A stretch of DNA of 40,896 nucleotides from a virus (IMGVR_UViG_2558309052_000002), one strand, 5' to 3'; counted from the first letter of the stretch, positions 13,382 through 30,827 are shown. Translations and numbers: made by a program. The notes: generated by a model from the sequence alone, not told the origin.

Positions 13382-13402
13382 GATTGTGCTCCTGTGTAAG
13401 TT

Positions 13403-13442
13403 CAGGGCAGTATGTCGGGAGAAGCGCGTGACGGATATTAAA
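13403..13442 (-). promoter_or_regulatory. late-promoter-like motif (copy 3), upstream of the tail chaperone and tape measure genes
   Basis: TTTAATATC-N23-CTGCCCTG on the minus strand, same spacing as the two better copies at 19323-19361 and 26787-26825; preceded by a C-rich tract. Confidence 0.4.
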
Positions 13443-13471
13443 GGAGATTAAGAAGAAGGGGCCGGAGCCCC
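13440..13471 (-). terminator. putative intrinsic terminator after the small ORF in the tail operon
   Basis: Minus-strand hairpin GGGGC-TCCG-GCCCC followed by TTCTTCTTAATCTCCTTT, directly after the stop of ORF 13479-13760. Confidence 0.5.
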
Positions 13472-13478
13472 TGTGATG

Positions 13479-13760
13479 TCAGCAAGTGCGAAACCCCTTG
13501 CAGTTACGCAGGAAAGCGATGAGAAGCGTCTTTCCCTCAGATTTGCCGATGCCGGAGAACCAGTGGTCGGGAGGCTCCCATGCTTCAATCAAATCCGCCA
13601 GTTTGCGGGCCTTTGAACGTGTGCAGTCAATCGGGTCATTGGTTTTACGGGTATTAAAAAGGGTTTCCACCCCCGGAATATCAAGGAGGGTAAACCACGT
13701 ACCATTTGACATGCCCAGTGCCGCACATCGTCCTCCTTTATCCGTCAGTTCAACACTCAC
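13479..13760 (-). CDS. hypothetical protein (possible moron between tail tube and tail chaperone genes)
   Basis: 93-aa ORF (MSVELTDKGGRCAALGMSNGTWFTLLDIPGVETLFN...) with no family I recognise; followed by its own terminator-like hairpin; no counterpart at this position in canonical Mu or P2 gene order. Confidence 0.45.
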   Translation of the reverse strand: MSVELTDKGGRCAALGMSNGTWFTLLDIPGVETLFNTRKTNDPIDCTRSKARKLADLIEAWEPPDHWFSGIGKSEGKTLLIAFLRNCKGFRTC

Positions 13761-13762
13761 CG

Positions 13763-14284
13763 TCAGCCCCCGATATTGATACGGTAGTCAGTCAGTTGAT
13801 CAACACCGCCGACCCGGAAGATGTTGGCCAGATAGTCCAGTTGCAGCAGCTCTTCACCATCCAGTACCTGTCTGATATACGTGCAGGTGAAGCTACTGGA
13901 GAACTCGGCGTTCTCGTGCTGTTTGAACGTCCCCAGCGGGTTCTTCTTGAACATAATCGTCAGGAAGGTGACCAGCGGGATTTCGTCAATCAGCCCCTGC
14001 GAGCTGTAGCGCTGGACGCTGGAACGACACTGCAGTGCCAGCGACCTGTACGGGTTCGCGGCAGACAGCATCGCATCGCGGTAAAAGCTGTTCCATTTGA
14101 TTTCGCCTTCCAGTTTGTCAAAACCAGCCGGGAGTTCCACCTTACCCACCATCCCCAGCGCCTTGTGTTCCTGCATAATCATGGAGACATCGGGGAGTTT
14201 AACTTCCTCAGCCCGTCCCAGCAGGTTAGTACCATCCAGATAGATGTTGGCATTCGTGATGCGGTTTATCTCAATCTTTGACAT
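13763..14284 (-). CDS. tail tube protein (Mu M / P2 FII-like)
   Basis: 173 aa directly downstream of the sheath gene, start overlapping the sheath stop. Confidence 0.85.
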   Translation of the reverse strand: MSKIEINRITNANIYLDGTNLLGRAEEVKLPDVSMIMQEHKALGMVGKVELPAGFDKLEGEIKWNSFYRDAMLSAANPYRSLALQCRSSVQRYSSQGLIDEIPLVTFLTIMFKKNPLGTFKQHENAEFSSSFTCTYIRQVLDGEELLQLDYLANIFRVGGVDQLTDYRINIGG

Positions 14285-15711
14285 CAGTTGCCCCCTTTCA
14301 GGGTTAACAGGTATTCCGAGGTGATCTCAGTCTCAAACGTCAGTCGCTCCAGCGGCGGTGGTGGCGTATATTTGTAGCTCAGCAACAGGTGCCCGGCGGC
14401 CAGCTCCGTCTCCGGATTGCGGGCCGGATCAAACCAGCAACGGAAGCCCAGTACCGCACCATCACCAGTCATTTTGCGACCGTAGGCGTTGACCGACTCC
14501 GTCAGTGCATCAATCAGCGCCTGAGTAATCGGCATGTCGATGTACTGCTGGCTGAAATAACGAATGGACTCGTTGATCACATCACCGGTGCGGCGAACGT
14601 TCTCAAAGTTACGCATATGGGTGACCGTTGGCCATGCTGCCGTCCGGTTACCCCACAGACGAAGGCCGCTGCCGTAACTGCTGAATACCGTGGTGATCCC
14701 CTGTTCGTTAAGCAGGTTCACCTCACTCTGCGGGTCATCAATCATCGCGGACAGCTGGCGCTCCACGCCGGTGATCCCCAGAATCTCCTGATTGGAGGAT
14801 GACCACCAGTAGCCCTTGTCCAGATCGACTCTGGCACGCAGACCTGCTGCACGCTGGCTGAGCGGCTCCAGACGCTCTGTGTTTGTCACCGGGTCATATA
14901 CCTTCACATGCGGATAGCACAGACGGACGCGGTCGGAGCTGGTATTGAAGTTGATGGTGCCTTCCGGGCCACGACCTGCCAGAGCCTGTGCAAAGGTGGT
15001 ACCGACAGGCGCATCAATGTAGGTTACCGCGCCCAGCTTCTCTGCCATGGCGATAAGCTCAACTGCGACACTCTTCTGGGTGCAGAACACCGGCGCAATC
15101 AGAATTTTGGCGAAATAGCCGTACAGGTTGAAGCTGTCGTTAAGCAGCTTCATGCCGGTTCGGTTTCCGGCGCTGTTCACCCCGCCGATGATGTCCGCCG
15201 CAGTCACCTTCGACGGGTCCGCGTACTCATAGCTCACCTTCACGCTGCCACCGGCCTCAATAGCCTTGCCCAGGTTCGTGAGCACACCCGCCTGCGCATC
15301 AACACGGTAGTCCGTGTTCGCCGTGTGGGTGGTGCTGCCTTCACTGTTTTTCACCACCACATTAGCGACAACCGGATGCGCCAGTCTGGCCTGCCCTGTC
15401 GATTTGTCAAAGGTAACCACCTCATCCTCGATCGCCGTTTTATGTTTCGCCGGGTCGAGGACGTTAATGACCAGAACGGTGCCTGCACCATGGTCATAAA
15501 TCGCATCCAGCGCCTGCGGAATGGTAAAGCCGGTGAACTGGCTGCCAAATGCCGCTGCGTCTTTCTCAGACAGGCACTGTACCAGCGTATTGACATCCCC
15601 CATCGGGGCGGTACCAATCAGGCCAATAACGGCAGATTTCACCGTTTTAACCGGGCGGGCACCGTTTTCCACCTCAATGGTTTCGGGACCATGCAGATAG
15701 TTAGCTGCCAT
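14284..15711 (-). CDS. contractile tail sheath protein (Mu L / P2 FI-like)
   Basis: 475 aa; characteristic size and sequence character of sheath proteins; followed by the tube gene. Confidence 0.9.
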   Translation of the reverse strand: MAANYLHGPETIEVENGARPVKTVKSAVIGLIGTAPMGDVNTLVQCLSEKDAAAFGSQFTGFTIPQALDAIYDHGAGTVLVINVLDPAKHKTAIEDEVVTFDKSTGQARLAHPVVANVVVKNSEGSTTHTANTDYRVDAQAGVLTNLGKAIEAGGSVKVSYEYADPSKVTAADIIGGVNSAGNRTGMKLLNDSFNLYGYFAKILIAPVFCTQKSVAVELIAMAEKLGAVTYIDAPVGTTFAQALAGRGPEGTINFNTSSDRVRLCYPHVKVYDPVTNTERLEPLSQRAAGLRARVDLDKGYWWSSSNQEILGITGVERQLSAMIDDPQSEVNLLNEQGITTVFSSYGSGLRLWGNRTAAWPTVTHMRNFENVRRTGDVINESIRYFSQQYIDMPITQALIDALTESVNAYGRKMTGDGAVLGFRCWFDPARNPETELAAGHLLLSYKYTPPPPLERLTFETEITSEYLLTLKGGN

Positions 15712-15955
15712 GGGTGTCCTCCGTTTTCACTTCGCTGTCACTGCTGCTTCTGCGCTTTGGTGACTGCACAGCCGGTGTGCCGGCGGGTTTAGTCTCTTCA
15801 GGTACCGGCGTCAGATGTTTCAGCGCCACCAGTACCTTCACGTAGTCATGCTCCTCCGGCAGGGAAACCGTCTTCCCCGGCCAGAGCAGGATTTCGGTTC
15901 CGTCCGACAGCGTGACGCCGCTGGCCGGGCCGGAATAGCGGTATTCTTTCATCAC
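15701..15955 (-). CDS. Mu gp38-like small protein
   Basis: 84 aa; position between the gp37-like and sheath genes. Confidence 0.5.
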   Translation of the reverse strand: MMKEYRYSGPASGVTLSDGTEILLWPGKTVSLPEEHDYVKVLVALKHLTPVPEETKPAGTPAVQSPKRRSSSDSEVKTEDTHGS

Positions 15956-16416
15956 TCGCTTTCCTCATAGTTCACTTCGGTTAACAGCGGGCCGGACGGT
16001 AAATCGCTGTCTTCGATAAAGACGCTTTCAGTCGCGAAGTCGAGGGCGTACTGCCACAGCCCCCTGACTTCACCGATAAACACCTCGCGGGTCAGCCAGA
16101 TACGGCGGCGGCAGCCGGGCGGGGTGTGGCCACCGAGAATGCGGCGGACAGCATCCAGGACATTAATCGCCCCTTTTTTACCGTTGAGCTGGCGGAAGAC
16201 CACCGTGACGCAGAGCTGGATAGTCTGAGACTGGATCACCGCACCGGTATCATCCGGCCTGTCAAAGCGCGAACCGGCATAGCTCAACAGCAACGCGCCA
16301 ACCGGATGGTTCAGGCGATATTCAGCCGGTTTCTCCGGGAAGTACTCCACCTGCAGTTGCGGCAGCTTCTCGCGTAACCGGGCCAGTACCGCATCAAGGA
16401 CGGGCAGAACGTTCAT
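15952..16416 (-). CDS. Mu gp37-like head/tail completion protein
   Basis: 154 aa; gene order match to the Mu gp36-gp37-gp38 block. Confidence 0.6.
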   Translation of the reverse strand: MNVLPVLDAVLARLREKLPQLQVEYFPEKPAEYRLNHPVGALLLSYAGSRFDRPDDTGAVIQSQTIQLCVTVVFRQLNGKKGAINVLDAVRRILGGHTPPGCRRRIWLTREVFIGEVRGLWQYALDFATESVFIEDSDLPSGPLLTEVNYEESE

Positions 16417-16862
16417 CAGTATTTCTCCAGTAAACCGTCACGACCGCCGAAAGTGGCCGGGCGACTGCGTACACGAAACTCGCCAGGCTCAGGCACATCT
16501 TTCTGAGTGGACGGCAGCCCCAGCGTGAGCCTGTTATCACGTAACTCCCTGAGTTGCCGCAGCGCTTCTTTGTGGTCATCCTTCACCGTATCCGGGAGGT
16601 CACCTTCCGGGCGGCGGGCGTAGAGCCGGTAACGGACCAGCGTGATGGCAATGTCCCGCAGAACAGTCGGTATCTCTGCCAGTGGCAGGATATAGCGTCC
16701 GCGCAGATGGGCATCAATCAGCTCGTCGGCATAGCGGATACAGCTGTCCACCACACGGGTATTCACTGTTGCAGGTGAGTCGAAGTCCATCTCTTCACTG
16801 GTGAGCTCGATAAGCGTCCGCTCCGGCACCTGCGCAAGCAAATCCTCCAGGGTGCAGTACAT
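16416..16862 (-). CDS. Mu gp36-like head completion protein
   Basis: 149 aa from the ATG at 16862 (MYCTLEDLLAQVPERTLIELT...); directly follows the upstream gene stop. Confidence 0.6.
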   Translation of the reverse strand: MYCTLEDLLAQVPERTLIELTSEEMDFDSPATVNTRVVDSCIRYADELIDAHLRGRYILPLAEIPTVLRDIAITLVRYRLYARRPEGDLPDTVKDDHKEALRQLRELRDNRLTLGLPSTQKDVPEPGEFRVRSRPATFGGRDGLLEKY

Positions 16863-16863
16863 G

Positions 16864-17202
16864 TCACACCCCGCGCAGGATACGAATGACGTCGCCTTCA
16901 CCCCCGGCTTCATCAAGTGCAATACCACAGGATTTACCGTCGCCGGACTGCGGCACGGCTCTGGCCTGAGCATCTGACTGAACAGCCACACCACGGCTGA
17001 CAGCGGCCCCGGCCTCGACAGCAATAATGCCCAGAACGCTCACCGGCGTGCTGTCGCCGGTAACAGCATCCACTTCGGCAACCCCGAGCGCTGCGGCACC
17101 GGCTTTACAGGGGGTATTATCTGCCCCGACAAAACGCTGCTGTGCCAGTGCTGCCCCTGCCGTTACGGTTGTGATCAGAATGACCTGCTGAGTGGTTCCC
17201 AT
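16864..17202 (-). CDS. Mu gp35-like small head protein
   Basis: 112 aa, Ala/Gly/Val-rich, immediately downstream of the major capsid gene. Confidence 0.55.
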   Translation of the reverse strand: MGTTQQVILITTVTAGAALAQQRFVGADNTPCKAGAAALGVAEVDAVTGDSTPVSVLGIIAVEAGAAVSRGVAVQSDAQARAVPQSGDGKSCGIALDEAGGEGDVIRILRGV

Positions 17203-17211
17203 AACGCCTCC

Positions 17212-18165
17212 TTATTTACTGATACCGGTAATGAGATACCCGGCATCGCCACCAACCACGGCGACTTTGTAGATATCGGTATAACGGCAGTACTTCACCT
17301 TGCCACCGGCTCCGTCGTATTTGTCGGCAACAGGCATCCCCTTACGACGCAGGGTGTAGCCGAAGGACGGCTCGTTCTCGTCCGCGCTGTCCGCCCCCGG
17401 CTGCGGTTTGCCGACATAGTGCAGCATCAGATTGTCTCCCCAGATATCCGCCGGCACGCTGTTCTTATCCATTGCCGCTTTCATGGACGGCAGGGAGACT
17501 GGGGCACCGATGACGATCTCTTCGATCTGAAAGAGGTCCTGCAGGATTTCTGTGGTGATGCGCTTGCGTTCGTTGGCTCCGATGGCGGCCTGAATCGCCG
17601 GGTGGAACTTCAGCAGCGCCATCACGCCGGCCCCCATGGTCATCAGGTTAGGACGCAGCCCCGTGGCCGTACGGACCGCTTCCATACCGGCTTCAATCAC
17701 CCCGATGGGGTCCCCCTTACCACCGGCCCAGCGATCACTGGCTGTCAGTTTTTTGACGTGCCCGGTACGGTAGACCTTTTCATCCTGAGCCAGACGGGCA
17801 GCGATAAGTTCACGGCGCAGGTTCACGCCATTCGTGGCGCGACGGATGGCCTTGCTCTCTTCGTTAAACATGGACTCCGCCTGCTCGCGATAGTCCACCG
17901 GCGCAGCCAGATCGTGTTCACCCAGCACCAGGTCCAGCGTGCCTGTTTTTTCACGGACCAGAACATTGCTGTCCGCCCCGACGGCACGCTCGGTGTCATA
18001 TTCCACAAAGGCGGTTTTCCCGAAGGTCGGTACACGCACGCCTTCCTTGTCCGTCAGCACGACGGGGAAAATACGTTCGCCGATGAATGCGGCATTTTTA
18101 TAGCCACGGGCGATACTGGTCAGTACCGGATCAACGACACGTTTACCTTTTAAGTAATCAGACAT
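17212..18165 (-). CDS. major capsid protein (Mu T-like)
   Basis: 317 aa; follows the protease/scaffold gene in the same order as Mu I/Z then T. Confidence 0.85.
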   Translation of the reverse strand: MSDYLKGKRVVDPVLTSIARGYKNAAFIGERIFPVVLTDKEGVRVPTFGKTAFVEYDTERAVGADSNVLVREKTGTLDLVLGEHDLAAPVDYREQAESMFNEESKAIRRATNGVNLRRELIAARLAQDEKVYRTGHVKKLTASDRWAGGKGDPIGVIEAGMEAVRTATGLRPNLMTMGAGVMALLKFHPAIQAAIGANERKRITTEILQDLFQIEEIVIGAPVSLPSMKAAMDKNSVPADIWGDNLMLHYVGKPQPGADSADENEPSFGYTLRRKGMPVADKYDGAGGKVKYCRYTDIYKVAVVGGDAGYLITGISK

Positions 18166-18179
18166 GCTCTCTCCTTAAA

Positions 18180-19295
18180 TTACAGGCAGCGTGCGACAGC
18201 AGCCTCATAGCTGATGCCTTCTTTTTTGGACAGGGCCACTGCTTTCTGATGCAGGGCCAGACGCTCAGGATCGGCTTCCGCAAACTCTGCCACATCCACC
18301 TTCACCGTGTCGCCGACACGCTCTTTTGTGGCCTGTTCGGCGAAATTCATCACCGGCTCCCCGTCGGAGAGCAATGAACGAAAGGCGGTGGCCAGCGGTG
18401 TGCGGCTTTCCCCCTCAGCAAACTCCACCGGCTTGTCGCCACCGGCGACGGCATCCAGCAGGGCAACCACCACGGAGGAGGCGCGGGGAGCCAGACGGCC
18501 CTCTGCGACCAGTTTTTCTGCAAAGGCCACATTGTCCTTATGCAGTTGCTCCTGTCTGACCTGTGCATCACGCGCATCGCGATCAGCAGCCTGCTGCTTC
18601 AGGCGGCGGTTCTCCTCCTGAAGGGCTTCAATCTCTTCTTTTGTCATCGATGATTCCTCGTTACTTGCGGAAGACGGCCCCGGGCCTGTCTCACTGAATT
18701 GTGCACCTGCTGCATCCTGCGACAGTGTGTCGCGGTACGCCTCTTCGCGCAGACTGTTGAGCTGCCATTCCGGCAGGACTTTTTCTGCCTCGTCCAGACT
18801 GAAGCGGGCGATCAGAAAATCGCGCAGCTTTCCCCACAGGGAGGCATTCGTGATGGCCTGCCAGTCGGCGAACTCCACCACACCTTCTTCCTGCTCACTG
18901 AAGGACACCTGTTTCAGCCCCTTGACGGAAGGTGGCTGTGCCCCGAGAAAGCCCACATGGCGAAGGTAGAGCACGCCGGGCTTCGGATTGGACGGTGAAT
19001 CCGGGAGGTAGAAAGAGGCGGACACTTTTTTGAATCGTCCGTCGGTGACCATCTCAGCAAACTGCGGGTCCAGCTGGGCAGGCTCTGCCATCAGATCGAC
19101 GCCGCTGAGCGACAGGGCTTTCACCCAGCCCCACGCCGGGTCTTCCGTTCTGGGATGACCAATCACGAGTGGTGCTTCATGGACGGACGGGTCATAGGCT
19201 TTCACGCAGGCGGCAAGATCGTCTGGCGTGAACGGCAGTTTTTTGCCGTGCATATCGGTATGAGTACCGGCTTTAAAAATGTGAATGGCTGACAT
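18180..19295 (-). CDS. head maturation protease / scaffold (Mu I-like)
   Basis: 371 aa, MSAIHIFKAGTHTDMHGKKLPFTPDDLAACVKAYDP... with an acidic coiled-coil C-terminal half typical of Mu I with nested scaffold Z. Confidence 0.85.
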   Translation of the reverse strand: MSAIHIFKAGTHTDMHGKKLPFTPDDLAACVKAYDPSVHEAPLVIGHPRTEDPAWGWVKALSLSGVDLMAEPAQLDPQFAEMVTDGRFKKVSASFYLPDSPSNPKPGVLYLRHVGFLGAQPPSVKGLKQVSFSEQEEGVVEFADWQAITNASLWGKLRDFLIARFSLDEAEKVLPEWQLNSLREEAYRDTLSQDAAGAQFSETGPGPSSASNEESSMTKEEIEALQEENRRLKQQAADRDARDAQVRQEQLHKDNVAFAEKLVAEGRLAPRASSVVVALLDAVAGGDKPVEFAEGESRTPLATAFRSLLSDGEPVMNFAEQATKERVGDTVKVDVAEFAEADPERLALHQKAVALSKKEGISYEAAVARCL

Positions 19296-19322
19296 TTTGC
19301 TGTCCCGCGTTATGTTGTCGGA

Positions 19323-19361
19323 GACAGTTTGTGAGAAATGCAGGCCCGGCGATTTTAATCT
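19323..19361 (-). promoter_or_regulatory. late-promoter-like motif (copy 2), upstream of the protease/scaffold gene
   Basis: ATTAAAATC-N23-CTGTCTCC on the minus strand inside the 214-bp gap between the gpG-like and protease genes; preceded by TCCCC and CTAAA tracts. Position corresponds to Mu P-I. Confidence 0.55.
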
Positions 19362-19509
19362 GCTTTAGAAAACATCAGGGGAGAAGGACAGGGAAAGCAA
19401 TGCGGTGAACCGGAGGCGGTTATAAAACAGAGGCTGTAAAGCCTTTATAAAGGTAATACAGCCCCTCATTCGCTGGCAATGATAAATCACCCGCCTGAAG
19501 AGAGAAAAC

Positions 19510-19968
19510 TCAGCGACGGGCCGCTGATTCAAGATGGCGGACAATGGTATCGAGGATGGGGATTACCACTTCAGGCTGTAGTTCTCCATCCCCCGTCACC
19601 GGCAGGAACGGGCGGGCCGGAAGTTCAACAGACTCATTACGCCCCGTTTTACCCCCGAACTGGTGAATGGCACCGTAAACAACGTTGGTCCCCACAACAG
19701 CCTGCCGGTCGTCATGGTCGGTTGATACTGACCCCATCAGACGCCCGGTATCCTGCAGTGTCTGCCCGTCACGTTCTTCCGCTGCCAGCGAGGGCATCCA
19801 CCCCGGACGCCCCTCATCAAGAAAGTTAAACTGTGTTTCCGCCAGCAGGGTTCCGGCGATTTTGCGCATCGCGGGCTCCAGGTCTGTGGCAGCAAGATCC
19901 AGCGCACGGAGGCTCCGGCGCAGGGACTTATCGTTAATGGTGATACTGACCAGGTTATCGGAAGCCAT
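19510..19968 (-). CDS. virion morphogenesis protein (Mu G-like)
   Basis: 152 aa; located between the F-like and I-like genes as in Mu. Confidence 0.75.
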   Translation of the reverse strand: MASDNLVSITINDKSLRRSLRALDLAATDLEPAMRKIAGTLLAETQFNFLDEGRPGWMPSLAAEERDGQTLQDTGRLMGSVSTDHDDRQAVVGTNVVYGAIHQFGGKTGRNESVELPARPFLPVTGDGELQPEVVIPILDTIVRHLESAARR

Positions 19969-19970
19969 TG

Positions 19971-20792
19971 TTATCCTCTCAGTTCCTGTTGTGCCAGTGG
20001 CTGAAGCGTACCCTGATAGCGGGCCAGGTCGGGACGGTATGCTGCCCCCGGAGCATAAGACCAGCCGACGTCGGTGGTCACCTTCGTGGTGCCGGTATTA
20101 AAGGTGGCCACGTTCCGCATTTCGCCGGTTTTCTCTGAGACCAGTTTCAGTTCCTGGCCCATGGCAGAGCCGGAGCTGATAACCTTCAGGCCACGGGCAC
20201 GTACATCCGCCGCACTCAGGGCAATAACACTACAGCGGCAGCGCCAGCCGTTCGGCGGGTAAAATGCCTGCCAGAACGGGTCATCCCAGCGCAGCACCAG
20301 ACCATGCAGCGCCAGATGGCTCCTGCGGGTATGGCTGTCGTTGATGCCGGTATACATCCAGTACGGCCTGTCGTCGACGTTTTCCATCTGTTCCGCCCAA
20401 CGACCGGCGCTGTAGAGTACGGACATATTGGTGCGAAAGATGGTATCGAGCCGCCACGGACTGCCCTGCTGAATGGTGACCGGCTCACCCGTTACCGGGT
20501 CAGTCGTGTCACGTGGTCCCCACCATCCCTTACGCTTCAGCACCGGCTCCAGCTCCTGCCGGAACCAGCGATCGGTTTTTCCTTCATCGACAGCCTGCTG
20601 CAGTGCCCCGCGAATATCTTCCAGGATATCCAGGCGGGTCACTTTAGCAACGGTAAAGGCGCGGGCATGGGCCTCCTGCCACATTTCTTCCCAGTCCCAG
20701 GTAATCTGATATCCTTTGGACTTCAGGTAGTTGATTGCCCGCTTCGGGGGAAGCGTCATGCAGTACGCCAGTTCAGCCGTTGTCACGCTCAT
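19971..20792 (-). CDS. head morphogenesis protein (Mu F-like)
   Basis: About 273 aa from the ATG at 20792 (MSVTTAELAYCM...); contains ...GWRCRCSV... typical of the Mu F / SPP1 gp7 family; follows the portal gene. Confidence 0.8.
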   Translation of the reverse strand: MSVTTAELAYCMTLPPKRAINYLKSKGYQITWDWEEMWQEAHARAFTVAKVTRLDILEDIRGALQQAVDEGKTDRWFRQELEPVLKRKGWWGPRDTTDPVTGEPVTIQQGSPWRLDTIFRTNMSVLYSAGRWAEQMENVDDRPYWMYTGINDSHTRRSHLALHGLVLRWDDPFWQAFYPPNGWRCRCSVIALSAADVRARGLKVISSGSAMGQELKLVSEKTGEMRNVATFNTGTTKVTTDVGWSYAPGAAYRPDLARYQGTLQPLAQQELRG

Positions 20793-22269
20793 GCAGACGT
20801 CCCCGGATATTTGCCACAAAGAGAATGCGGGCCAGCCGCTCCTGCAGATCGTCCGTGTTCATCTGAGGGTAGAGCTCCGCCAGTTCGCCCAGCAGCTCAG
20901 ACGGGTTAACCCCGTTTTCGACCCGCCTGAACAGAGGTGCCAGGACGGGTTCCAGCGTGCCATTTAACGCGCCTCCGTTCATCAGAATGTCCAGCGCGTC
21001 GTCAAGCTGCTGCTGAGCCTGAATATCAGCATCAATCGCCTCGGCAAATGACAGCGGCAGCATGTTATTCTGGCGTTCCGACGGTGGTGTCTCGTCAATA
21101 TCGCCGTCCTGCAGTTGGTACTCACGCTTGAAGTACTGCGGGGTCAGACGCAGACCCGCCCGGGTGAGTTTTTCGTCGCGGGTGGCACGGGTGTCATCAA
21201 TGGCCTCCTGTTCCCACATGGCCCAGACCGGACACGGCACATCGCCGAAGTTCAGGGTGACCACCGTTCTGATGACCTGATTCACTGCCGCCTGAATGAT
21301 GTCCGCATCCGCATCGCGGATATCAGCCGTTACCTCCAGCCCGGCCTGTGCAGAGGCCTTGTTACTGTTCGCTTCCGTGGTCTGATTCTGACCGAGTAAT
21401 GCAATGGAGATCTCACTGCGTGACAGTGTGATCAGCTCGCGAAATACCTCGCTGCTGTCTGCCTTGCCATCCGCTGCCCTGAGCTCAATACTGCTGTCAT
21501 CGGGGATGGCGGCCACCGCGTCCTCCACCATCTGCTCCATGGAGTCCAGCAGTTTTTCAATCTCTGCATCATTTGCGCCCCTCGGGTGCTTACCGATCAC
21601 CCACGGGGAGCCAAACTTTTCGGCAAAGCGGAGCCAGAATTTCATCCCGCCTTTCTTGAAGGCGACCGGCCAGAAGCACATGGACAGGTCCGGGAAACCG
21701 TAAGGATTGTCATACGAGGCATCCTGTGCCGGCACCACGAATTTTGACGGTGACAGCAGCTCACCCTCCACACCCGCATCACGCGCCCGAAAGCGCAGGC
21801 AGTTGTCCGTATCAAACTGAAACCACTCAGGCGGTTTGCCGACAATATCCGTCACCGCCCACGACCTGACCGAACGGCCCCACATGATTTCACAGGGCTG
21901 ATACCCGTAGAGCACGGCATCGCTCATTTCACCGATGATGCGGGACAGATCCAGATCGTCGAGCATGTCGCGGATGAAACGGAAGACCCGGGCAGAGGCG
22001 TGACCACGCTCCAGTCCACGCTCCAGCGATTTGAGCGCTGCTTTACGTCTGCGGATACAGCCCCCGACCAGCGGGTCGGTGCGCAGTTCGCGGTAGATAC
22101 GGATATCCCGTCCCTGAGCCTTGAGAATGGGATCAGGATTGGGCAGATACATGCCCAGTCCGTAAAAGTCGATCGCGCGGCTGCGGGAGGCAATCTGCGC
22201 GGTCAGTGATTTCTGAGGCTCAGAAAAAGCAACAAATTCATCGGGTGAAACCCAGATACCCCTCGCCAT
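20773..22269 (-). CDS. portal protein (Mu gp29-like)
   Basis: 498 aa; start overlaps the large terminase stop; size and order match the Mu portal. Confidence 0.85.
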   Translation of the reverse strand: MARGIWVSPDEFVAFSEPQKSLTAQIASRSRAIDFYGLGMYLPNPDPILKAQGRDIRIYRELRTDPLVGGCIRRRKAALKSLERGLERGHASARVFRFIRDMLDDLDLSRIIGEMSDAVLYGYQPCEIMWGRSVRSWAVTDIVGKPPEWFQFDTDNCLRFRARDAGVEGELLSPSKFVVPAQDASYDNPYGFPDLSMCFWPVAFKKGGMKFWLRFAEKFGSPWVIGKHPRGANDAEIEKLLDSMEQMVEDAVAAIPDDSSIELRAADGKADSSEVFRELITLSRSEISIALLGQNQTTEANSNKASAQAGLEVTADIRDADADIIQAAVNQVIRTVVTLNFGDVPCPVWAMWEQEAIDDTRATRDEKLTRAGLRLTPQYFKREYQLQDGDIDETPPSERQNNMLPLSFAEAIDADIQAQQQLDDALDILMNGGALNGTLEPVLAPLFRRVENGVNPSELLGELAELYPQMNTDDLQERLARILFVANIRGRLHERDNG

Positions 22270-23864
22270 CAGAATCCCTCCAGCATACGGGCCGCCTGAC
22301 GACGACGGCGTGAGCTTGCCTTCACCGGCCCTTTGTTAATTTCACGGCTGGCGAAATACGCCAGCGCCAGTGCGATGGCTGAATCCCCGTGGCGTTTACC
22401 ACCGTCAGCCTTTGCTTTTGAGCGTTGCTCCGGTACGCGGGGGACACCGTTCACCACCTGAACGGCCCGCAGGTCATCCAGTGTGTCTTCATCCTTTGGT
22501 AAGTCCACCAGGTTGCCGTCTTCCAGTGCAGCTTTGACCGGAGGCATATGCTCCCGGTACCAGCCTTCGGTTGGCATCACCTGCTGAACCCGGCCGGAGC
22601 CGTAGCGCTGCATGGCGTATTCAGCCAGATAGGCACCATTACCACGGGCATCAAACGCTGCACCCAGCAGACCGGGCAGGCCATCCATCAGATACCAGGT
22701 GATTTGCTCCTGCTGTCTGAACGGCACGTTACGCAGCTCCAGTACGAATGGCACGCGTCGTACCAGGTTCTTCTCCTGCAGCAGGGGATAGTCCACCGAC
22801 AAATCACCGCTACGGCCAAAGTCGCGCCCCAGGAAAGAGCGGGCATCAGTGGGGAGTGCCTCCAGCAATGGTTTCAGATACTCATCAAGCCAGTCCTGCG
22901 TCTCGCGGAAGCGAACCTCATCAGACAGCAGTTCATAACCTTCCTTGCAGGTCAGACGCAATACCGGCGTATCAGCGGACATGCGGGACTCTATCAGGGC
23001 ACGGGACAGCCAGGCACCGCCACCGTTGGCCGGAATACAGTCAAGCTCTTCGGATGCGCCGGCACCGTAGAATTTGTACACCGATGCCATCCAGGCCTGC
23101 TCGGATGCCTCCGACCATTCCTTCCCGGTGCGCAGACAGACGCGCCGGAACAGCCCCTCAGATACGGCTTCCCGGAAAGTGATGCGATGTATGCTGCCTC
23201 CCTGACGTCCGGCACGGATATCCCCGATAAGCGTATTGAACGGATTGTCGTCACCGTCATGGGTGGAGATAACGCGTACCTTTCCCCCCCAGATAAGCAT
23301 CGCCAGCGCCGCTTTCAGCAGTTCGTCCAGTTGCTCATGGAACGCCGCTTCGTCGATAACAATAATACCCTGACGGCCACGCAGGTTAGACGGGCGGCTG
23401 GAGAGCGCAACAATACGAAAGCCGGAGTCAGGAAATTTGATGGTGTAAGTCTTGATGTGTTTGTCGTCGTCGTCCTCTTCCCAGAATCCTTCTTCAATTT
23501 CACTGGCCGCATAGTTGAATGCCCGTGCCCACATCGCACACGCCTGAATGTATTCGACGGTCATGTCCTGGTTATAAGCGATGTAATACACATTCATCCC
23601 GCCTGCTGGCGCAGAAGAGGCGGCGGTCAGTACGTTATCGGATGCCTCAGCCCATGTAATACCGGTACGACGGCTCTTTTCTATCACCTTAAGCGGAGAG
23701 GTGTCTGCCACCCAGCGCTGCTGGTAAGGCAACAGAACGGGAGGGGCATCCAGCGCCGAGGTATCAGGCAAAACGGGAGCAAGGTTATTCCTCCCGTCCA
23801 TGGGACTCATCCCTTCGGGGCCGCCGCCAGCGGCGTTTAAAATCACTCCGGATGATTTTGTCAT
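22269..23864 (-). CDS. terminase large subunit (Mu gp28-like)
   Basis: 531 aa; ATGA overlap with the upstream gp27-like gene; position before the portal gene. Confidence 0.85.
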   Translation of the reverse strand: MTKSSGVILNAAGGGPEGMSPMDGRNNLAPVLPDTSALDAPPVLLPYQQRWVADTSPLKVIEKSRRTGITWAEASDNVLTAASSAPAGGMNVYYIAYNQDMTVEYIQACAMWARAFNYAASEIEEGFWEEDDDDKHIKTYTIKFPDSGFRIVALSSRPSNLRGRQGIIVIDEAAFHEQLDELLKAALAMLIWGGKVRVISTHDGDDNPFNTLIGDIRAGRQGGSIHRITFREAVSEGLFRRVCLRTGKEWSEASEQAWMASVYKFYGAGASEELDCIPANGGGAWLSRALIESRMSADTPVLRLTCKEGYELLSDEVRFRETQDWLDEYLKPLLEALPTDARSFLGRDFGRSGDLSVDYPLLQEKNLVRRVPFVLELRNVPFRQQEQITWYLMDGLPGLLGAAFDARGNGAYLAEYAMQRYGSGRVQQVMPTEGWYREHMPPVKAALEDGNLVDLPKDEDTLDDLRAVQVVNGVPRVPEQRSKAKADGGKRHGDSAIALALAYFASREINKGPVKASSRRRRQAARMLEGF

Positions 23865-24406
23865 GTGGCAATCCCCAGAATCTCGCGACGAAGCGCCTGT
23901 ACTGCGTCGCTTGACAGTCCCCCCTTACGGGCAATTTTCTCGGCGTTGCTGGCTGCCTGCTGCGCTCTGGCCCGTACTTCAGACTGGAACTTTTTGAGGT
24001 TGACGGACGCGCGGGACAGCGTAGCCACATTCTTCGCCACCTTCGACAGCAGGGCCACGCGTTCTTTAGGATCGACTTCGCCTTCTTCCGCCTCCTGCAA
24101 CTGGACAATACTCTCGAACAGCTCGGTCTGAATAAGGGCTATCACAGCCTCCGAACGCGCATCCTGATCGTCTGCTGCGCCTTCGGTCAGCATGCGGGCC
24201 GCTTCTGTTGCCGCACGGATAGCACCATAGCGGCGCTCAATCTTCTGTCCATAGCGATGGATAGCGGATTTGCTGATGACGTACCCCCGCTCACGCAACA
24301 GTGACTCCAGCTCGTTATACCCGCTGAAGCCGGATTCAGTCAGCGCCCGTTCAAGCCAGCGGCGCACGTCTTCCGGCAGCTTTTCTATTGTGCTGCGTCT
24401 GGCCAT
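23861..24406 (-). CDS. Mu gp27-like DNA-binding protein (putative terminase small subunit)
   Basis: 181 aa, MARRSTIEKLPEDVRRWLERAL..., basic, coiled-coil C-terminus; immediately upstream of the large terminase. Confidence 0.7.
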   Translation of the reverse strand: MARRSTIEKLPEDVRRWLERALTESGFSGYNELESLLRERGYVISKSAIHRYGQKIERRYGAIRAATEAARMLTEGAADDQDARSEAVIALIQTELFESIVQLQEAEEGEVDPKERVALLSKVAKNVATLSRASVNLKKFQSEVRARAQQAASNAEKIARKGGLSSDAVQALRREILGIAT

Positions 24407-24717
24407 TATTCACTCCAGTACTTTTCCGGGCGGGCAATACCCGGACCACATTCCACGGTGTATTCCACCAGGTCTACGCCGAGGCGGGTCAGGTCAGCAA
24501 ACCAGTCGCCAGAAGGTTTTTTCTCCAGCTCAACCATTTTACGGTCAGCCAGATAATCCAGTTCGCGGCGCAGTTCCAGCGGTGTGGTGTCCGGGTAGAT
24601 GGCACGGGACACATCCAGCAGCAGCGTCTCGCTGGCGGTGTAAGGGCGGGTCTTGTTCAGGGCAACCAGCAGACTCCAGCGCAGGGATTCGCGGCGTACC
24701 CGGGTAATATCGACCAT
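24406..24717 (-). CDS. hypothetical protein (Mu gp26-like position)
   Basis: 103-aa ORF between the lysis cassette and the terminase genes; order-based call. Confidence 0.45.
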   Translation of the reverse strand: MVDITRVRRESLRWSLLVALNKTRPYTASETLLLDVSRAIYPDTTPLELRRELDYLADRKMVELEKKPSGDWFADLTRLGVDLVEYTVECGPGIARPEKYWSE

Positions 24718-25043
24718 TATTGACCTCCGGTATTGCGGTACTGCTGTACCACTTCCAGTTTGTTATAAAGCGCGTCCAGTTTGGCCTCAATGACTGTCTG
24801 GCCACGGATATAATCCTCTCGACGGACATAATTCAGCGGTAAATCCGCTTTAAATCGCATAAATTCTTTTTCCAGCTCGCCCCAGTTGGAGGCGGATTGT
24901 TGCAGGGCCTGTTCAAGGGAGGCGAATCGTGCCGCCTGGCGTTCTTCTGTTTTACTGAACAACCATTTGGCGAGCCCTCCCACAAACCTCATGAAGGTGA
25001 GCAGAAAACTCACCACCGTCCAGAATTCAACCTGCAGTGTCAT
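24717..25043 (-). CDS. small membrane protein (Mu gp25-like position), lysis-associated?
   Basis: 108 aa with one N-terminal hydrophobic helix (FWTVVSFLLTFMRFVGGLA) then a coiled-coil; start overlaps the spanin stop. Confidence 0.45.
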   Translation of the reverse strand: MTLQVEFWTVVSFLLTFMRFVGGLAKWLFSKTEERQAARFASLEQALQQSASNWGELEKEFMRFKADLPLNYVRREDYIRGQTVIEAKLDALYNKLEVVQQYRNTGGQ

Positions 25044-25690
25044 TTCTGTAATCCTTCCCGTTCATCCAGCAGCGCGTTTATCTGGTTCCGCCAGCGACGA
25101 CATTGCCATGCGTTGTCGATGATGTTGGCGAGAACGTCACGCTGGGAGACACCCGAATCGCGTAACCGGGTGTCAGTGGTTTCAGGTTGCCCGGTCGCTG
25201 TGCCAGAGCGGGTGCCAGTGGCGGCAACTGAGTCTGAATGACCGGTGTCGACGGATGCGTTGTCATATCCGAGTGCGGCGTTGTACTGGCGCACGAAACC
25301 GCGAGTAAACACGCACTCAATGGGATGACTCTTACCTTTTTCATCAATCCAGCGCTGTGTGACATCGTTAATTTGCCCCTGTAGTTGTTTGTTCCGGCTC
25401 TCCAGTTGAGCAATCTGCTCAAGATAACCGGCTTCAGCCCGCTGCCCGGCGGCCACCTGCTCCTGATACCGTCTGGCCCAGGCCCGCAGCGCAGCATTCT
25501 CAAGCGTTGCCTGCTCCGTTTTGTACGCGTCAAATGCTGACTGCAACTGACTTAGCGCGGTATCACCGTCACGCTTTGCAGAGTCATGACCACTTCTGTA
25601 TCCCATGGCATACAGGCCGACCAGAAAGGCATTGATAAGAATGGCCAGCAGAATGCCGCGCCACGGCAGCTTTTTAACCAGATGCCACAC
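25040..25690 (-). CDS. i-spanin (Rz-like inner-membrane spanin subunit)
   Basis: N-terminal TM helix (WRGILLAILINAFLVGLYAMGY) followed by a long coiled-coil; candidate GTG start at 25690 with GGAGG 7 nt upstream; contains an embedded +1-frame lipoprotein gene. Confidence 0.7.
   Translation of the reverse strand: MWHLVKKLPWRGILLAILINAFLVGLYAMGYRSGHDSAKRDGDTALSQLQSAFDAYKTEQATLENAALRAWARRYQEQVAAGQRAEAGYLEQIAQLESRNKQLQGQINDVTQRWIDEKGKSHPIECVFTRGFVRQYNAALGYDNASVDTGHSDSVAATGTRSGTATGQPETTDTRLRDSGVSQRDVLANIIDNAWQCRRWRNQINALLDEREGLQK
25078..25344 (-). CDS. o-spanin (Rz1-like outer-membrane lipoprotein) embedded in the i-spanin gene
   Basis: Embedded ORF starting MKKVRVIPLSACLLAVSCAS (signal peptide with lipobox-like LAVSC) followed by a proline-rich segment; entirely inside the i-spanin gene in another frame. 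Confidence 0.65.
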   Translation of the reverse strand: MKKVRVIPLSACLLAVSCASTTPHSDMTTHPSTPVIQTQLPPLAPALAQRPGNLKPLTPGYAIRVSPSVTFSPTSSTTHGNVVAGGTR

Positions 25691-26294
25691 AACTGCTGCC
25701 TCCCCATGTGAGATATCGCGGTGCCAGTTCGCGCAGGATGCGCTGCGGATAATGGCGGTTCTCCCGCCAGCTGGCCGCATTGCGTCCGGCATTCACCGTG
25801 GCGACATGTCCGAACCAGCGGGTGCTGTCCAGACCTTTCTGTGATGCAAGCCGCCTGTCCCGTTGTACCCAGCCCAGACCACCGTTATAGCCCGACAGTG
25901 TCATGGCCATACGCTCGCAGTCACTGGCGGCGCTGACACGCTGCCACAGCCAGCGGTCATAGCTGACCAGCGCCCGGATAGCCCATGCCGGATTAAACGG
26001 CTCACGACTGCTCAGCATCGGTATCAACTGGCTTATCCAGTCGGCAGTGGCAGGCATGAACTGCGCCAGTCCCTGAGCGCCAGCCGGCGAGATCGCATCA
26101 GGTCGCCAGCCGCTTTCCTGATGCAGTTGCGCGGCGAAATCGGCCACCGGCGCAGACAGTCCCCATTCAAGCCGGGCATTACGGATCACATCATCGCGAT
26201 ACTGCAGCGCAGCCTGCGGAGGTTGTGCTGCGCATGCCTGGCTGAAAAAGCCGCCACACCAGAGCAACATTGCGACAAAGAATACCCATGCCAT
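25674..26294 (-). CDS. endolysin, SLT-domain lytic transglycosylase with N-terminal signal/anchor
   Basis: From the ATG at 26294: MAWVFFVAMLLWCGGFFSQACAA... then ...LHQESGWRPDAISPAGAQGLAQFMPATA... (soluble lytic transglycosylase catalytic motif). The longer ORF in the track overlaps the holin gene and is less likely. Confidence 0.8.
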   Translation of the reverse strand: MAWVFFVAMLLWCGGFFSQACAAQPPQAALQYRDDVIRNARLEWGLSAPVADFAAQLHQESGWRPDAISPAGAQGLAQFMPATADWISQLIPMLSSREPFNPAWAIRALVSYDRWLWQRVSAASDCERMAMTLSGYNGGLGWVQRDRRLASQKGLDSTRWFGHVATVNAGRNAASWRENRHYPQRILRELAPRYLTWGGSSCVASG

Positions 26295-26416
26295 ATGAAC
26301 CAGAAAGGTCCCGGCGCGGACTGACAGGCGTTCGGTTCTGATGAAGACCCGAAAGGCTTCGAAAGCCAGTTTCAGGGACATGCATACAATCCAGGTGATC
26401 TGCGGCCAGTTCATGA

Positions 26417-26767
26417 TTAAAGCCCCATCGCAACAGCCAGGCAGACCGCTGCAACAATCAGTGCACGGCGGATTAACGCAGCAGAAAACACCAGGTGAAG
26501 GCCGGTCTGTACCGGGAAACGCCCTTCAGCCATCAGCCTGTCGTCATGTTTCAGGTACTGACCGGGACGGGCTTTGGGGAAGAGCGAACGGTCAAGCCAG
26601 TAACCCAGCACTGCTGCCAGCGTGATGAGTGCCAGCTTGTAGATCACAACAGGCAGCTGCTGTGGTGAGACCAGAGCGATGGTGCCCAGCAACAGCACTG
26701 AGGTCAGCAGCCAGCCGCTGAGGCGAGGTTTTTTAACAGGGGGAATGAATTTTTTCAGGTTTTTCAT
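26417..26767 (-). CDS. putative holin (three predicted TM helices)
   Basis: From the ATG at 26767 (RBS AAGGAG): MKNLKKFIPPVKKPRLSGWLLTSVLLLGTIALV... with three hydrophobic segments; first gene of the lysis cassette. Confidence 0.6.
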   Translation of the reverse strand: MKNLKKFIPPVKKPRLSGWLLTSVLLLGTIALVSPQQLPVVIYKLALITLAAVLGYWLDRSLFPKARPGQYLKHDDRLMAEGRFPVQTGLHLVFSAALIRRALIVAAVCLAVAMGL

Positions 26768-26786
26768 GTGTGTCTCCTTATCTGGT

Positions 26787-26825
26787 GGAGACAGCATCAC
26801 AAATACAGGGCGCGAAGGATTTTAA
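26787..26825 (-). promoter_or_regulatory. late-promoter-like motif (copy 1), upstream of the lysis cassette
   Basis: TTTAAAATC-N23-CTGTCTCC on the minus strand, 19 nt upstream of the holin ATG; C-rich tract upstream; the CTGTCTCC box can pair with the RBS region (GGAGACA). Confidence 0.55.
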
Positions 26826-26962
26826 AGCGCGTTAAGAGAGCCGGGGATACGGGATGTGCAGGATAAACGATGAATTATTCACAGAGGAGAATACGATATG
26901 ACGCAGACACTGAATCCGGTCATCACTGTCACCGTGTCCGGTCCTGTGGGCAGCGGTAAAAG

Positions 26963-26990
26963 TTACCGTACTGGCGCGAATAGAGGTAAG
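26963..26990. repeat. 28-bp direct repeat, left copy, flanking the IS66-family element
   Basis: TTACCGTACTGGCGCGAATAGAGGTAAG, identical to 29514-29541. The last 5 nt overlap the IS terminus GTAAG. Confidence 0.9.
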
Positions 26991-27015
26991 CGTCAACGGA
27001 GCACCGTATTGACGC

Positions 27016-28629
27016 TTATTTATTGGTGAGTACTACGTTCCATGGCAGGAGTTCGTCAACTCGGTTGGAAGGCCATTCCGGCAGTACGCTCAGGATATGG
27101 CGCAGATACGCTTCCGGATCGATACCGTTCAGACGGCAGGTGCCGATCAGCCCGTACAACAGTGCTCCACGCTCGCCGCCGTGATCGCTGCCAAAGAACA
27201 TAAAGTTTTTCTTTCCGAGACAGACTGCACGAAGCGCTCTTTCCGCAGCATTATTATCCGCCTCCGCCAGACCGTCATCACTGTAATAACAGAGGGCATC
27301 CCACTGATTCAGTACATAGCTGAACGCTTCGCCCAGTCTGGATTTTTTCGACAGCGTACCATTCTTCTCCACCATCCATTCATGCAGCGACGTCAGTAAC
27401 ACTTTGCTTCGCTGCTGCCTGACGGCAAGACGCTCTGACTCCGGTAATCCCCGTATTTCATCCTCGATGGCGTACAGTTCACTGATTCGCTTCAGGGCTT
27501 CTTCTGCCGTCGCACTTTTGCTGCTGATGTATACATCGTGGATTTTTCGCCGGGCATGGGCCCAGCACGCAACTTCTGTCAGTGCACCACCTTCACGTTC
27601 TGCACTGAACAACCTGTCGTAACCTGTGAACGCATCCGCCTGCAGGATACCCCGGAAGGGGCGGAGGTGTTGCTCCGGGTGTTTCCCCTGCCGGTTCGGC
27701 GAGTACGCGAACCAGACCGCTGGAGGAGATGACGAACCCACATTGCGATCATCCCGGACATACGTCCAGATACGCCCTGTTTTCGCCTTTTTCTGACCCG
27801 GTGCCAGTACCTTTACCGGTGTGTCATCAGTGTGAACCTTGCGGGTGTTCATTACATAACGGTACAGGGCATCATTCACCGGTGTCATTAACTGGCAGCA
27901 CGCGTCAACCCAGTTGGAGAGTAAGGCCCGGCTCAGTTCGACACCCTGGCGGGCAAAGATTTCACTCTGACGATACAGTGGCAGATGTTCGCAGTATTTT
28001 CCCGTTAACACGCGGGCAAGTAATCCGGGGCCCGCGATACCACGCTCTATCGGGCGGGACGGCGCCGGTGCTTCAACAATACAGTCACATTTTGTACAGG
28101 CTTTTTTTACCCGTTCTGTGCGGATCACTTTCAGGGCACTGCTCACCAGTTCCAGCTGTTCAGCGCTGACTTCCCCCAGATAATCCAGCTCACCGCCACA
28201 CTCCGGGCAACAGCTTTCTTCTGGCTCCAGGCGGTGTATTTCACGGGGAAGGTGTGCCGGTAACGGACGACGATGGCGCGACTGTCGCAACTGGCGGGGA
28301 ACCTGAGGATCGTCTTCCCGCCCACTGTAACGATCGCTGTCCTGTTCACGTTGTTTCAGCAGAGCCTCAGCCAGTTCAACTTCACGACGCAGTTTTTCAG
28401 AACGGGTACCGAACAGCATCCGGCGCAGTTTTTCTATCTGAGCCCGCAGATGTTCTATTTCCCGTTCATCTTCTTCGATCTTTTCTTCGGCACGTGTCAG
28501 TGCAGAGCGCAGGAAGGCTTCCGTCTCTTCAACCAGACTCAGTTGCTGGTCTTTCTGACGGAGGGCTTCAGCCTGCTCAGAGAGCAACCTTTCCAGCTCT
28601 GCGATGCGAATGAGGTATTTCTGACTCAT
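27016..28629 (-). CDS. IS66-family transposase (TnpC / orf3)
   Basis: 537 aa, N-terminal coiled coil, CxxC...CxxC zinc-ribbon region and DDE-type core; typical IS66 transposase architecture. Confidence 0.9.
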   Translation of the reverse strand: MSQKYLIRIAELERLLSEQAEALRQKDQQLSLVEETEAFLRSALTRAEEKIEEDEREIEHLRAQIEKLRRMLFGTRSEKLRREVELAEALLKQREQDSDRYSGREDDPQVPRQLRQSRHRRPLPAHLPREIHRLEPEESCCPECGGELDYLGEVSAEQLELVSSALKVIRTERVKKACTKCDCIVEAPAPSRPIERGIAGPGLLARVLTGKYCEHLPLYRQSEIFARQGVELSRALLSNWVDACCQLMTPVNDALYRYVMNTRKVHTDDTPVKVLAPGQKKAKTGRIWTYVRDDRNVGSSSPPAVWFAYSPNRQGKHPEQHLRPFRGILQADAFTGYDRLFSAEREGGALTEVACWAHARRKIHDVYISSKSATAEEALKRISELYAIEDEIRGLPESERLAVRQQRSKVLLTSLHEWMVEKNGTLSKKSRLGEAFSYVLNQWDALCYYSDDGLAEADNNAAERALRAVCLGKKNFMFFGSDHGGERGALLYGLIGTCRLNGIDPEAYLRHILSVLPEWPSNRVDELLPWNVVLTNK

Positions 28630-28659
28630 GACCGTTTTTATAATGCGGTCAGGAGTTTT

Positions 28660-29432: not shown

Positions 29433-29513
29433 ACTTAGATGTCCGTCTATATCAGATGGGCGTCTAAGTTACCAATTCTCGTCTGATGGCTACATACGGC
29501 GGTCAGTTTACGC

Positions 29514-30773: not shown

Positions 30774-30827
30774 TCCCTAAACCACATTAACAGAAATCCC
30801 GCCATCCCTGCCGCATCATGAAAGAAC

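Follow-up and report, generated by a model that had tools for sequence, protein, structure and literature searches.

Four copies of a Mor-type operator and −10 module mark predicted late promoters of a BcepMu-like prophage

The operators of the phage activators Mor and C are imperfect dyads of 16 base pairs (bp), in which two 5-bp inverted repeats stand on either side of a G/C-rich spacer of 6 bp, and are centred at −43.5 in promoters with a −10 and without a −35 element (PMC2582627, PMC4390567, PMC4287176). In the Mu middle promoter Pm, positions −57 to −52 read GTAAAC (PMC4390567, Table 3) and the Mor dyad occupies −51 to −36 (PMC4287176), which fixes this dyad in the Mu genome as AGTAAAGCCGGTTAAT (AGTAA-AGCCGG-TTAAT), followed by 22 nucleotides (nt) and then by TATCCT, the hexamer at −13 to −8. 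The C operator of Mu has the consensus TTAT-N5-6-ATAA (PMC12867686). Here we analyse the 40,896 nt of IMGVR_UViG_2558309052_000002 (the window, meaning the whole stretch at its full length) and a motif repeated on its minus strand. The window is a BcepMu-like transposable prophage of Escherichia coli: its late region is 100% identical to that of Escherichia phage PhiKM (Bcepmuvirus), and Klebsiella phage KP12 and Phi06_2974 B show about 85% identity to it. On the minus strand, the late genes extend from about 26.8 kb to about 3.8 kb, and the early genes (transposase, Gam, GemA) are on the plus strand, the last of them encoding a 129-aa Mor-family protein (40507-40896). We conclude, with a probability of roughly 0.85, that the motif marks four late promoters of this prophage that depend on a single activator of the Mor/C family. 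No described late promoters of BcepMu-like phages were found in the open-access literature, a mention in Summer et al. 2004 being possible.

A preliminary description had reported three minus-strand copies of TT(T/A)AA(A/T)ATC followed, after exactly 23 nt, by CTG(T/C)C(T/C)(C/T)(C/G). All three are present with exact spacing, although two sets of coordinates were slightly off (26826-26787 was given as 26825-26787, and 19359-19320 as 19361-19323) and the first position is W rather than T, the 9-mer of the second site being ATTAAAATC. A whole-window scan with WTTAAWATC-N23-CTGYCYYS rendered four matches, all on the minus strand (26826-26787, 19359-19320, 13442-13403 and 7091-7052), here called S1 to S4. 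S4, which had been missed, lies in the 54-bp gap between the baseplate genes V and W, and its end directly abuts the ATG of W. The pattern carries about 28 bits, so that by our arithmetic some 3e-4 further matches would be expected in 2 x 40.9 kb, and none was found in 100 shuffles. When a position weight matrix made from relatives alone was run on the window, the four sites scored 39.5-43.5 bits, the next best position 10.9 and the maximum in random sequence 11.0; with any one promoter class left out of the matrix, all four sites still ranked top. The motif can thus be taken as genuine and specific. No copy of it lies inside coding sequence, all four sites being intergenic, on the late-gene strand and each directly before an operon, and the same architecture is kept across about 95 loci.

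Alignment of the four sites revealed that what had been taken for a separate CT(T/A)AA box is the distal half-site of a longer element: together with the first five bases of the 9-mer it forms a 16-bp dyad, yTTAA-N6-TTAAw. The box is real, starts 10 nt upstream of the 9-mer and not 25-30 nt, and reads TCTAA in register at S2. The distance from the dyad to a downstream hexamer is exactly 22 nt at all four sites, and the dyad centre precedes the hexamer's first base by 30.5 bp, a distance identical to that in Mu Pm. With this geometry, the CT of the supposed downstream box CTGYC becomes the end of a predicted −10 hexamer, nAnnCT, and its G the first base of the discriminator, rather than a feature at about +20. 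The sites, their uniqueness, conservation and geometry, as well as the presence of a Mor-family gene, can be read directly from the sequence and its comparison with relatives. The elements predicted at each promoter are as follows.

26821-26836, minus strand: dyad of S1 (lysis operon), CTTAA-CGCGCT-TTAAA, predicted Mor-family activator site equivalent to −51 to −36 of Mu Pm
26793-26798, minus strand: predicted −10 of S1, GATGCT, 22 nt past the dyad
26787-26792, minus strand: discriminator of S1, GTCTCC; predicted +1 the A at 26786, holin ATG at 26767
19354-19369, minus strand: dyad of S2 (protease/scaffold-capsid operon), TCTAA-AGCAGA-TTAAA, kept in 31 distinct orthologous cores
19326-19331, minus strand: predicted −10 of S2, CAAACT, the same hexamer as read at the corresponding position of Mu PI
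19320-19325, minus strand: discriminator of S2, GTCTCC; predicted +1 at 19319 (G) or 19318 (A), ATG at 19295
13437-13452, minus strand: dyad of S3 (tail chaperone/tape-measure operon), CTTAA-TCTCCT-TTAAT, kept in 38 distinct cores
13409-13414, minus strand: predicted −10 of S3, CATACT
13403-13408, minus strand: discriminator of S3, GCCCTG; predicted +1 the A at 13402, ATG at 13381
7086-7101, minus strand: dyad of S4 (baseplate W-J-I/tail-fibre operon), TTTAA-ACGCCT-TTAAT, kept in 27 distinct cores and in variants with a 20-nt spacer
7058-7063, minus strand: predicted −10 of S4, AATACT, within the inverted repeat GGGGGC/GCCCCC (7052-7069); gpW ATG at 7051

The conservation of these elements was followed in the regions upstream of the four orthologous genes in about 95 loci, comprising KP12, Phi06_2974 B, BcepMu, 12 Enterobacterales prophage loci and 80 IMG/VR contigs. 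The anchoring pattern, N5-N6-TTAAW-N3-N19-NANNNT, forces A2 and T6 of the hexamer and leaves C5 free. It was found in 61/61 distinct upstream regions of the holin gene (exactly once in 60 of them and twice in the other one), 54/54 of the protease gene, 60/60 of the chaperone gene and 49/55 of gpW, the remaining gpW regions differing solely by a spacer of 20 nt instead of 19. This longer spacer between the dyad tail and the −10 is seen at the gpW promoter only, in a subset of the relatives (L026, L028, L030, L037-L039, L045, L093 and L098), and a few have 7 nt in place of 6 from the hexamer to the ATG. The TAA...TTAA core does not vary among 132 distinct orthologous cores, and the positions that the pattern does not force are near-invariant as well (the distal T-A-A, A16, C42 in 127/132 and G44 in 130/132), while the 19-nt spacer holds almost no information. 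The 33 distinct orthologous cores of S1 all keep TAA-N6-TTAA unchanged. The 7th nt past the hexamer is a purine in most variants, being A in 29/35 of those of S1 and in 34/39 of those of S3.

KP12 has exactly four such sites, and BcepMu has three clear ones and one that has diverged; the protease dyad of BcepMu, CGTAA-AGCCGA-TTAAA, equals the Mu Pm dyad at 13/16 positions. The Pasteurella phage AFS-2018a (MH238466.1), examined separately, carries the same four promoters at 9609, 16819, 22250 and 28202, in the form TTTAA-N6-TTAAA followed by 22 nt and by TATACT, TATTCT, TAAACT or TAATAT, in a genome whose gene order is Mu-like and collinear and whose activator is 46% identical.

The preliminary description had proposed activator-dependent late promoters of the Mu type. 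This stands as regards the −10 without a −35, the position before late operons and the Mor-family gene, whereas the operator is Mor-like, as in Pm, and not of the C type of Plys, PI and PP. The TAA-N6-TTA core and the 22-nt spacing place the window sites in the Mor-operator type, and TTAT and ATAA in half-site register, as in the C-type consensus TTAT-N5-6-ATAA, are absent from 3/4 window sites and from nearly all those of relatives; TATAA occurs only as the distal half-site of the KP12-type holin promoter. A sigma-70 promoter scan found no −35/−10 pair at any of the four sites, in keeping with promoters that lack a −35. The presumed activator is the following gene.

40507-40896, plus strand: Mor/C-family gene, 129 aa, last gene of the early operon, presumed activator of S1-S4

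Its product matches the Pfam family Mor (PF08765) over 40507-40893 with 147.8 bits and an E value of 1.3e-43. Its identity is 30% with Mu Mor, 37% with Mu C (over 79 aa) and 53% (four-sequence alignment) or 54% (tblastn) with BcepMu gp01. No second Mor/C homologue was found in the window. A C-terminal clamp-binding motif, QPDLF (consensus QL[SD]LF), has been reported for MuC and the Mor/C family (PMC12867686), and the C-terminus of the window protein, ...RMQGKLFADE, resembles it; BcepMu gp01 has QRDLF, and the N-terminal motif is less clear (SDLNQF).

It is proposed that the Mor/C-family protein would bind the dyad, lying across the −35 region at −51 to −36 with its centre at −43.5 by homology with Mu Pm, and would recruit or activate the host RNA polymerase at a weak sigma-70 −10, nAnnCT, separated from the dyad by 22 bp of unconserved spacer and lacking a −35, transcription starting 7-8 nt past the hexamer. 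Four late operons would follow: lysis with terminase/portal; protease/capsid/sheath/tube; tail chaperone/tape measure/hub; and baseplate W-J-I/tail fibre. The cascade would then have two steps, early to late, against three in Mu, with no middle step. Homology is the basis for inferring that the Mor-family protein binds, where transcription starts and that it is late, and several observations weigh against this reading. The hexamers are weak, matching TATAAT at 3-4/6 positions; the G+C content of the 6-bp dyad spacer is 5/6, 3/6, 3/6 and 4/6 at S1-S4, which is only moderate; and counting +1 as the 7th nt past the hexamer puts the dyad centre at −42.5 instead of −43.5. Mor and C are equally remote from the activator, whose operator specificity is therefore unreadable from its sequence; the residues of the recognition helix also differ among Mor, C and the window protein and do not allow it to be inferred. 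The only related data set found, the differential RNA sequencing of uninduced Burkholderia cenocepacia J2315, which carries BcepMu, lists no late start sites (PMC4603805 Table S3). Finally, the covariation of the hairpins treated below demonstrates selection for pairing in RNA (or DNA) that contains the −10 region and, taken alone, also fits a more upstream start.

A more upstream start is implied by the preliminary description, which took TAAAAT for the −10. In such an anatomy TAAAAT or TAATAT would be the −10, an activator would act further upstream at the C-rich tract and the CTWAA box, transcription would start about 7 nt past the 9-mer and CTGYC would be a conserved element of a leader of 50-60 nt. 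These hexamers are closer to TATAAT than those proposed here, and such a start would place all of the covarying hairpin within the mRNA leader. We nevertheless consider this anatomy very unlikely. TAAAAT belongs to the promoter-proximal half of the dyad, and its would-be T(−7) is G, A or C in 40/129 distinct orthologous promoters, and G in 28/31 protease promoters (KP12, Xenorhabdus/Photorhabdus and BcepMu among them). This anatomy leaves unexplained the strict spacing of 19-20 nt, across unconserved sequence, to a hexamer with an invariant A...T, the near-identity of CTWAA-N6-TTAAW to the mapped Mor operator, and the fact that the gpW ATG always lies 6-7 nt past the downstream hexamer without a Shine-Dalgarno sequence. 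The C-rich tract does exist, but its distance, given as 25-30 nt, is variable; at S3 it is the 3' arm of a terminator-like hairpin, and at S4 the corresponding stretch is coding sequence, namely the end of gene V. The TCCCC tract was also considered as a functional element, and it may or may not have a role: its positional conservation is weak ('cc' near −10/−9 relative to the dyad), and it is partly terminator arm or coding. The terminator-like structures concerned are listed here.

13457-13472, minus strand: terminator-like hairpin AGGGGCTCCGGCCCCT with a T-rich tail, directly upstream of the S3 dyad; top-ranked terminator-like site
19431-19527, minus strand: pair of terminator-like hairpins (19527-19510; 19444-19431) separating gene G from the S2 promoter

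Lying just upstream of S2 and S3, these hairpins mark operon boundaries there. No terminator was found upstream of S4, and read-through RNA should therefore exist at that site.

The favoured anatomy would give a second role to the bases just past the −10. At S1-S3, the six bases past the hexamer can pair with the Shine-Dalgarno region of the gene that comes first, in the following predicted hairpins.

26772-26794, minus strand: S1 hairpin (CT)GTCTCC ... GGAGAC, pairing the −10/discriminator with the holin Shine-Dalgarno; −10.5 kcal/mol, z-score −2.9
19300-19327, minus strand: S2 hairpin CTGTC(T)CC ... GGGACAG, over the Shine-Dalgarno region; −10.7 kcal/mol, z-score −2.9
13388-13409, minus strand: S3 hairpin TGCCCTG ... 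CAGG(A)GCA, over the Shine-Dalgarno; −8.3 kcal/mol, z-score −1.8

Using RNAalifold and pair counts, the arms of S1 were 95% paired among relatives, compared with at most 59% in slid controls, and showed the compensatory change GCCTCC/GGAGGC. Those of S2 were paired in 93% of cells (at most 57% in slid controls), with 21 double-change cells against 7.0 +/- 3.4 in shuffles. No RNAalifold consensus was obtained for the S3 leaders, in which MAFFT misaligned the variable loops, so that the S3 hairpin rests on single-sequence folds and on a comparison of lineages by eye, in some of which the hexamer itself pairs (GATACT/AGTATC) while others have different arms (GTCCTCA/TGAGGAC). The L093-L098 group and the Pasteurella phage have arms of entirely different sequence, and in AFS-2018a perfect arms of 10-11 bp pair the −10 region with GGAG. 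At S4, the hairpin GGGGGC/GCCCCC abuts the AUG (−15.8 kcal/mol, z-score −3.6), and covariation of its stem is seen in Photorhabdus (GGGGAT/GTCCCC), BcepMu (GCGGC/GCCGC) and Pasteurella (GCCCTG/CAGGGC). When 29 late-gene starts were compared, the four that are promoter-proximal had z-scores of −2.2 to −3.9, and only 2 of the other 25 fell below −2; the promoter-proximal genes are 4 of the 6 most structured starts, for which we calculate a chance of C(6,4)/C(29,4) = 6e-4. Similar hairpins are found at Pm, PI and Plys of Mu (NC_000929.1), with z-scores of −2.7, −4.7 and −1.8, respectively, and at Pm the whole of the 5' arm, CCTGTGATGA, precedes the published +1. In the Mu regions of Pm, Plys and PI (9150-9250, 10400-10480 and 17980-18056), the energies were −14.9, −10.3 and −14.7 kcal/mol; there the 5' arm begins in or just past the −10, and the 3' arm covers the start codon or the Shine-Dalgarno of the first gene.

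The energies given for S1-S3 belong to RNAs that contain the hexamer. RNAs starting at the 7th base past the hexamer gave weak folds, no better than shuffled ones; in that of S2, the remaining stem of −5.9 kcal/mol involves the start codon. The nearest documented mechanism is that of T4, where genes e, soc, 49 and I-TevI each have a late promoter embedded in the DNA for one side, the 5' strand, of an RNA hairpin in which the ribosome-binding site is hidden. Longer transcripts coming from upstream fold and conceal the Shine-Dalgarno or AUG, those initiated at the promoter lack the 5' arm, and only the latter are translated (PMC3014915). We see about an even chance that the conserved bases just past the −10 act as the 5' arm of a hairpin, masking the Shine-Dalgarno at S1-S3 or abutting the AUG at S4. 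As the arm precedes the predicted +1, folding and translational silence would be confined to read-through RNA, and promoter-initiated RNA would be open; this position of the arm follows solely from the assignment of the −10, in whose last bases the arm begins. As for transcription from upstream, a primary start was mapped in uninduced biofilm at 598712 (minus strand) of chromosome 3 of B. cenocepacia J2315, in the BcepMu prophage, 21 nt upstream of gp20 (BCAS0535) (PMC4603805 Table S3). This small gene, oriented toward the lysis genes and the holin, has its end inside the holin promoter dyad, and the start mapped before it in J2315 suggests that upstream transcription exists.

It could be argued that the block is mainly an RNA element, a leader hairpin controlling the translation or stability of a polycistronic late RNA, and that the A/T boxes are incidental or serve another DNA-binding protein, with no promoters at these places. 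The covariation and significant stability of the hairpins, as well as the read-through RNA expected at S4, where no terminator precedes the site, speak in its favour. A hairpin, however, leaves unexplained the invariant dyad 30 bp upstream, its fixed distance and its match to the Mor operator; the arms change altogether from one lineage to another, whereas the dyad and the A...T of the hexamer stay fixed; the terminator-like hairpins just before S2 and S3 call for new promoters there; and no match to any Rfam family was found anywhere in the window. We therefore judge this explanation highly improbable. The integration host factor, IHF, has the consensus WATCAANNNNTTR. That the boxes bind a host nucleoid protein or a transposition or packaging factor, such as IHF or HU, and not the Mor-family protein is the least probable of the explanations considered, since, in spite of the A/T-rich half-sites and of the HU-like protein encoded by BcepMu, the sites stand exactly and only before late operons, on one strand and in promoter geometry with a −10, the dyad closely matches a mapped Mor operator, and by inspection there is no resemblance to the IHF consensus.

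Returning to activator-dependent late promoters, S4 has a further peculiarity. The gpW ATG (7051) begins 6 nt past the hexamer, with no Shine-Dalgarno within 12 nt, and this distance is 6-7 nt in all relatives (6 nt in BcepMu and 7 nt, past TAATAT, in AFS-2018a). The anatomy thus predicts that the gpW mRNA started from S4 would be leaderless. An example of a leaderless phage mRNA is that of lambda cI transcribed from PRM. In BcepMu (NC_005882.1; 18811-18870), the annotated start of gp32, the protease gene, at 18850 falls inside the predicted −10, GATGAT, and an ATG at 18862 (ATGAAC...), 7 nt past GATGAT and without a Shine-Dalgarno, aligns with the N-terminus of the window protein. Position 18850 is probably not the true start of gp32, the mRNA of which may also be leaderless.

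Putting these features together, it is possible that the Mor/C-dependent promoters of BcepMu-like phages, of the Pasteurella Mu-like phage and of Mu (Pm, PI and Plys) constitute a composite module in which the −10 and discriminator double as the 5' arm that silences the first gene on upstream RNA, so that only activator-started transcripts would be translated, that of gpW as a leaderless mRNA. We put this forward tentatively, at a little short of even odds.

Some observations concern the surroundings of the sites. The window closes on the right, at 40896, precisely with the stop codon of the Mor-family gene. This prophage is also present in E. coli S931B, where it adjoins ycaL, and this host gene lies about 140 bp past the Mor-family gene, which makes the activator gene the last one at that prophage end. 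An IS66-family insertion sequence (IS), ISEc23 (tnpA, tnpB and transposase; about 26972-29519, minus strand, in the window; 20900-23316 in locus L002), is found some 135 bp upstream of the S1 dyad and separates the early/immunity region from the lysis promoter. In S931B the same IS is inserted at another point, 117 bp closer, about 20 nt upstream of the dyad. The different positions indicate two independent insertions into this intergenic region, and the S1 promoter core is intact after both. The phage has no mom gene. A fifth candidate site at 30776-30819 on the plus strand (CCTAA-ACCACA-TTAAC ... CATCAT), upstream of a dam-like methylase gene, recalls Pmom; it scores 10.9 bits, equal to the random maximum, is absent from KP12 and is probably due to chance.

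The best-supported interpretation is that these elements would be additional members of the known class of Mor/C-dependent promoters, with a Mor-type operator used directly by late operons. This provides a complete, testable transcription map for widespread Mu-like prophages of Enterobacterales, Burkholderia and Pasteurella, with one activator, four late promoters, predicted starts and operon boundaries, as well as a sequence rule for late promoters in such prophages, TAA-N6-TTAAW-N22-nAnnCT, and the correction of likely mis-annotated gene starts such as that of BcepMu gp32. It would also mean that conservation of the Mor operator of Mu reaches far outside Mu and that late genes make direct use of it, implying a shorter cascade than that of Mu. 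If the fold-back and leaderless predictions are true, they would add a layer of translational insulation of which we found no description for Mu-type phages. Transcription from outside is a real problem for a transposable prophage that lands randomly in host operons, and the composite module, if true, would insulate from it those late genes that are lethal or sensitive to stoichiometry, and would extend the principle of T4 gene e to a whole promoter family.

Compared with the systems already described, the window sites are closest to Mu Pm, with which they share the TAA-N6-TTA core, the 5+6+5 layout, the 22 bp to a weak −10 followed by G, the lack of a −35, a T-rich or A/T-rich stretch just upstream and an activator of the Mor family (PF08765). 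Mu, however, has a single Pm, which drives a middle operon encoding the second activator, C, whereas in the window the Mor-type site is used four times, directly before late operons, with one activator gene. On the other hand, the C-dependent late promoters of Mu are also four, with a −10 and no −35 and with a dyad centred near −43.5 (PMC2582627). Two of their positions are shared with the window (before the lysis genes and before the protease/scaffold gene I), and their −10 hexamers are similar (TAGACT and CAAACT, each followed by G); in our reading of the Mu genome, the C operator lies 23 bp from the hexamer instead of 22, and the third and fourth promoters of the window precede the tail chaperone gene and gpW, not P and mom. 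The arrangement predicted at S1-S3 has the same geometry as that of T4 e, soc, 49 and I-TevI, and S1, like the T4 promoter of e, precedes a lysis gene, but the promoter would be used by sigma-70 and a Mor-family activator instead of gp55/gp33, and the arrangement is predicted, from the sequence, at every late promoter of this phage. As in the lambda cI leaderless mRNA, the AUG of gpW would be at the expected transcription start, without a Shine-Dalgarno; unlike cI, gpW is a baseplate gene, structural in function, that stands amid a cluster of late genes and would also be reached by read-through RNA, and its leaderlessness is predicted from geometry alone.

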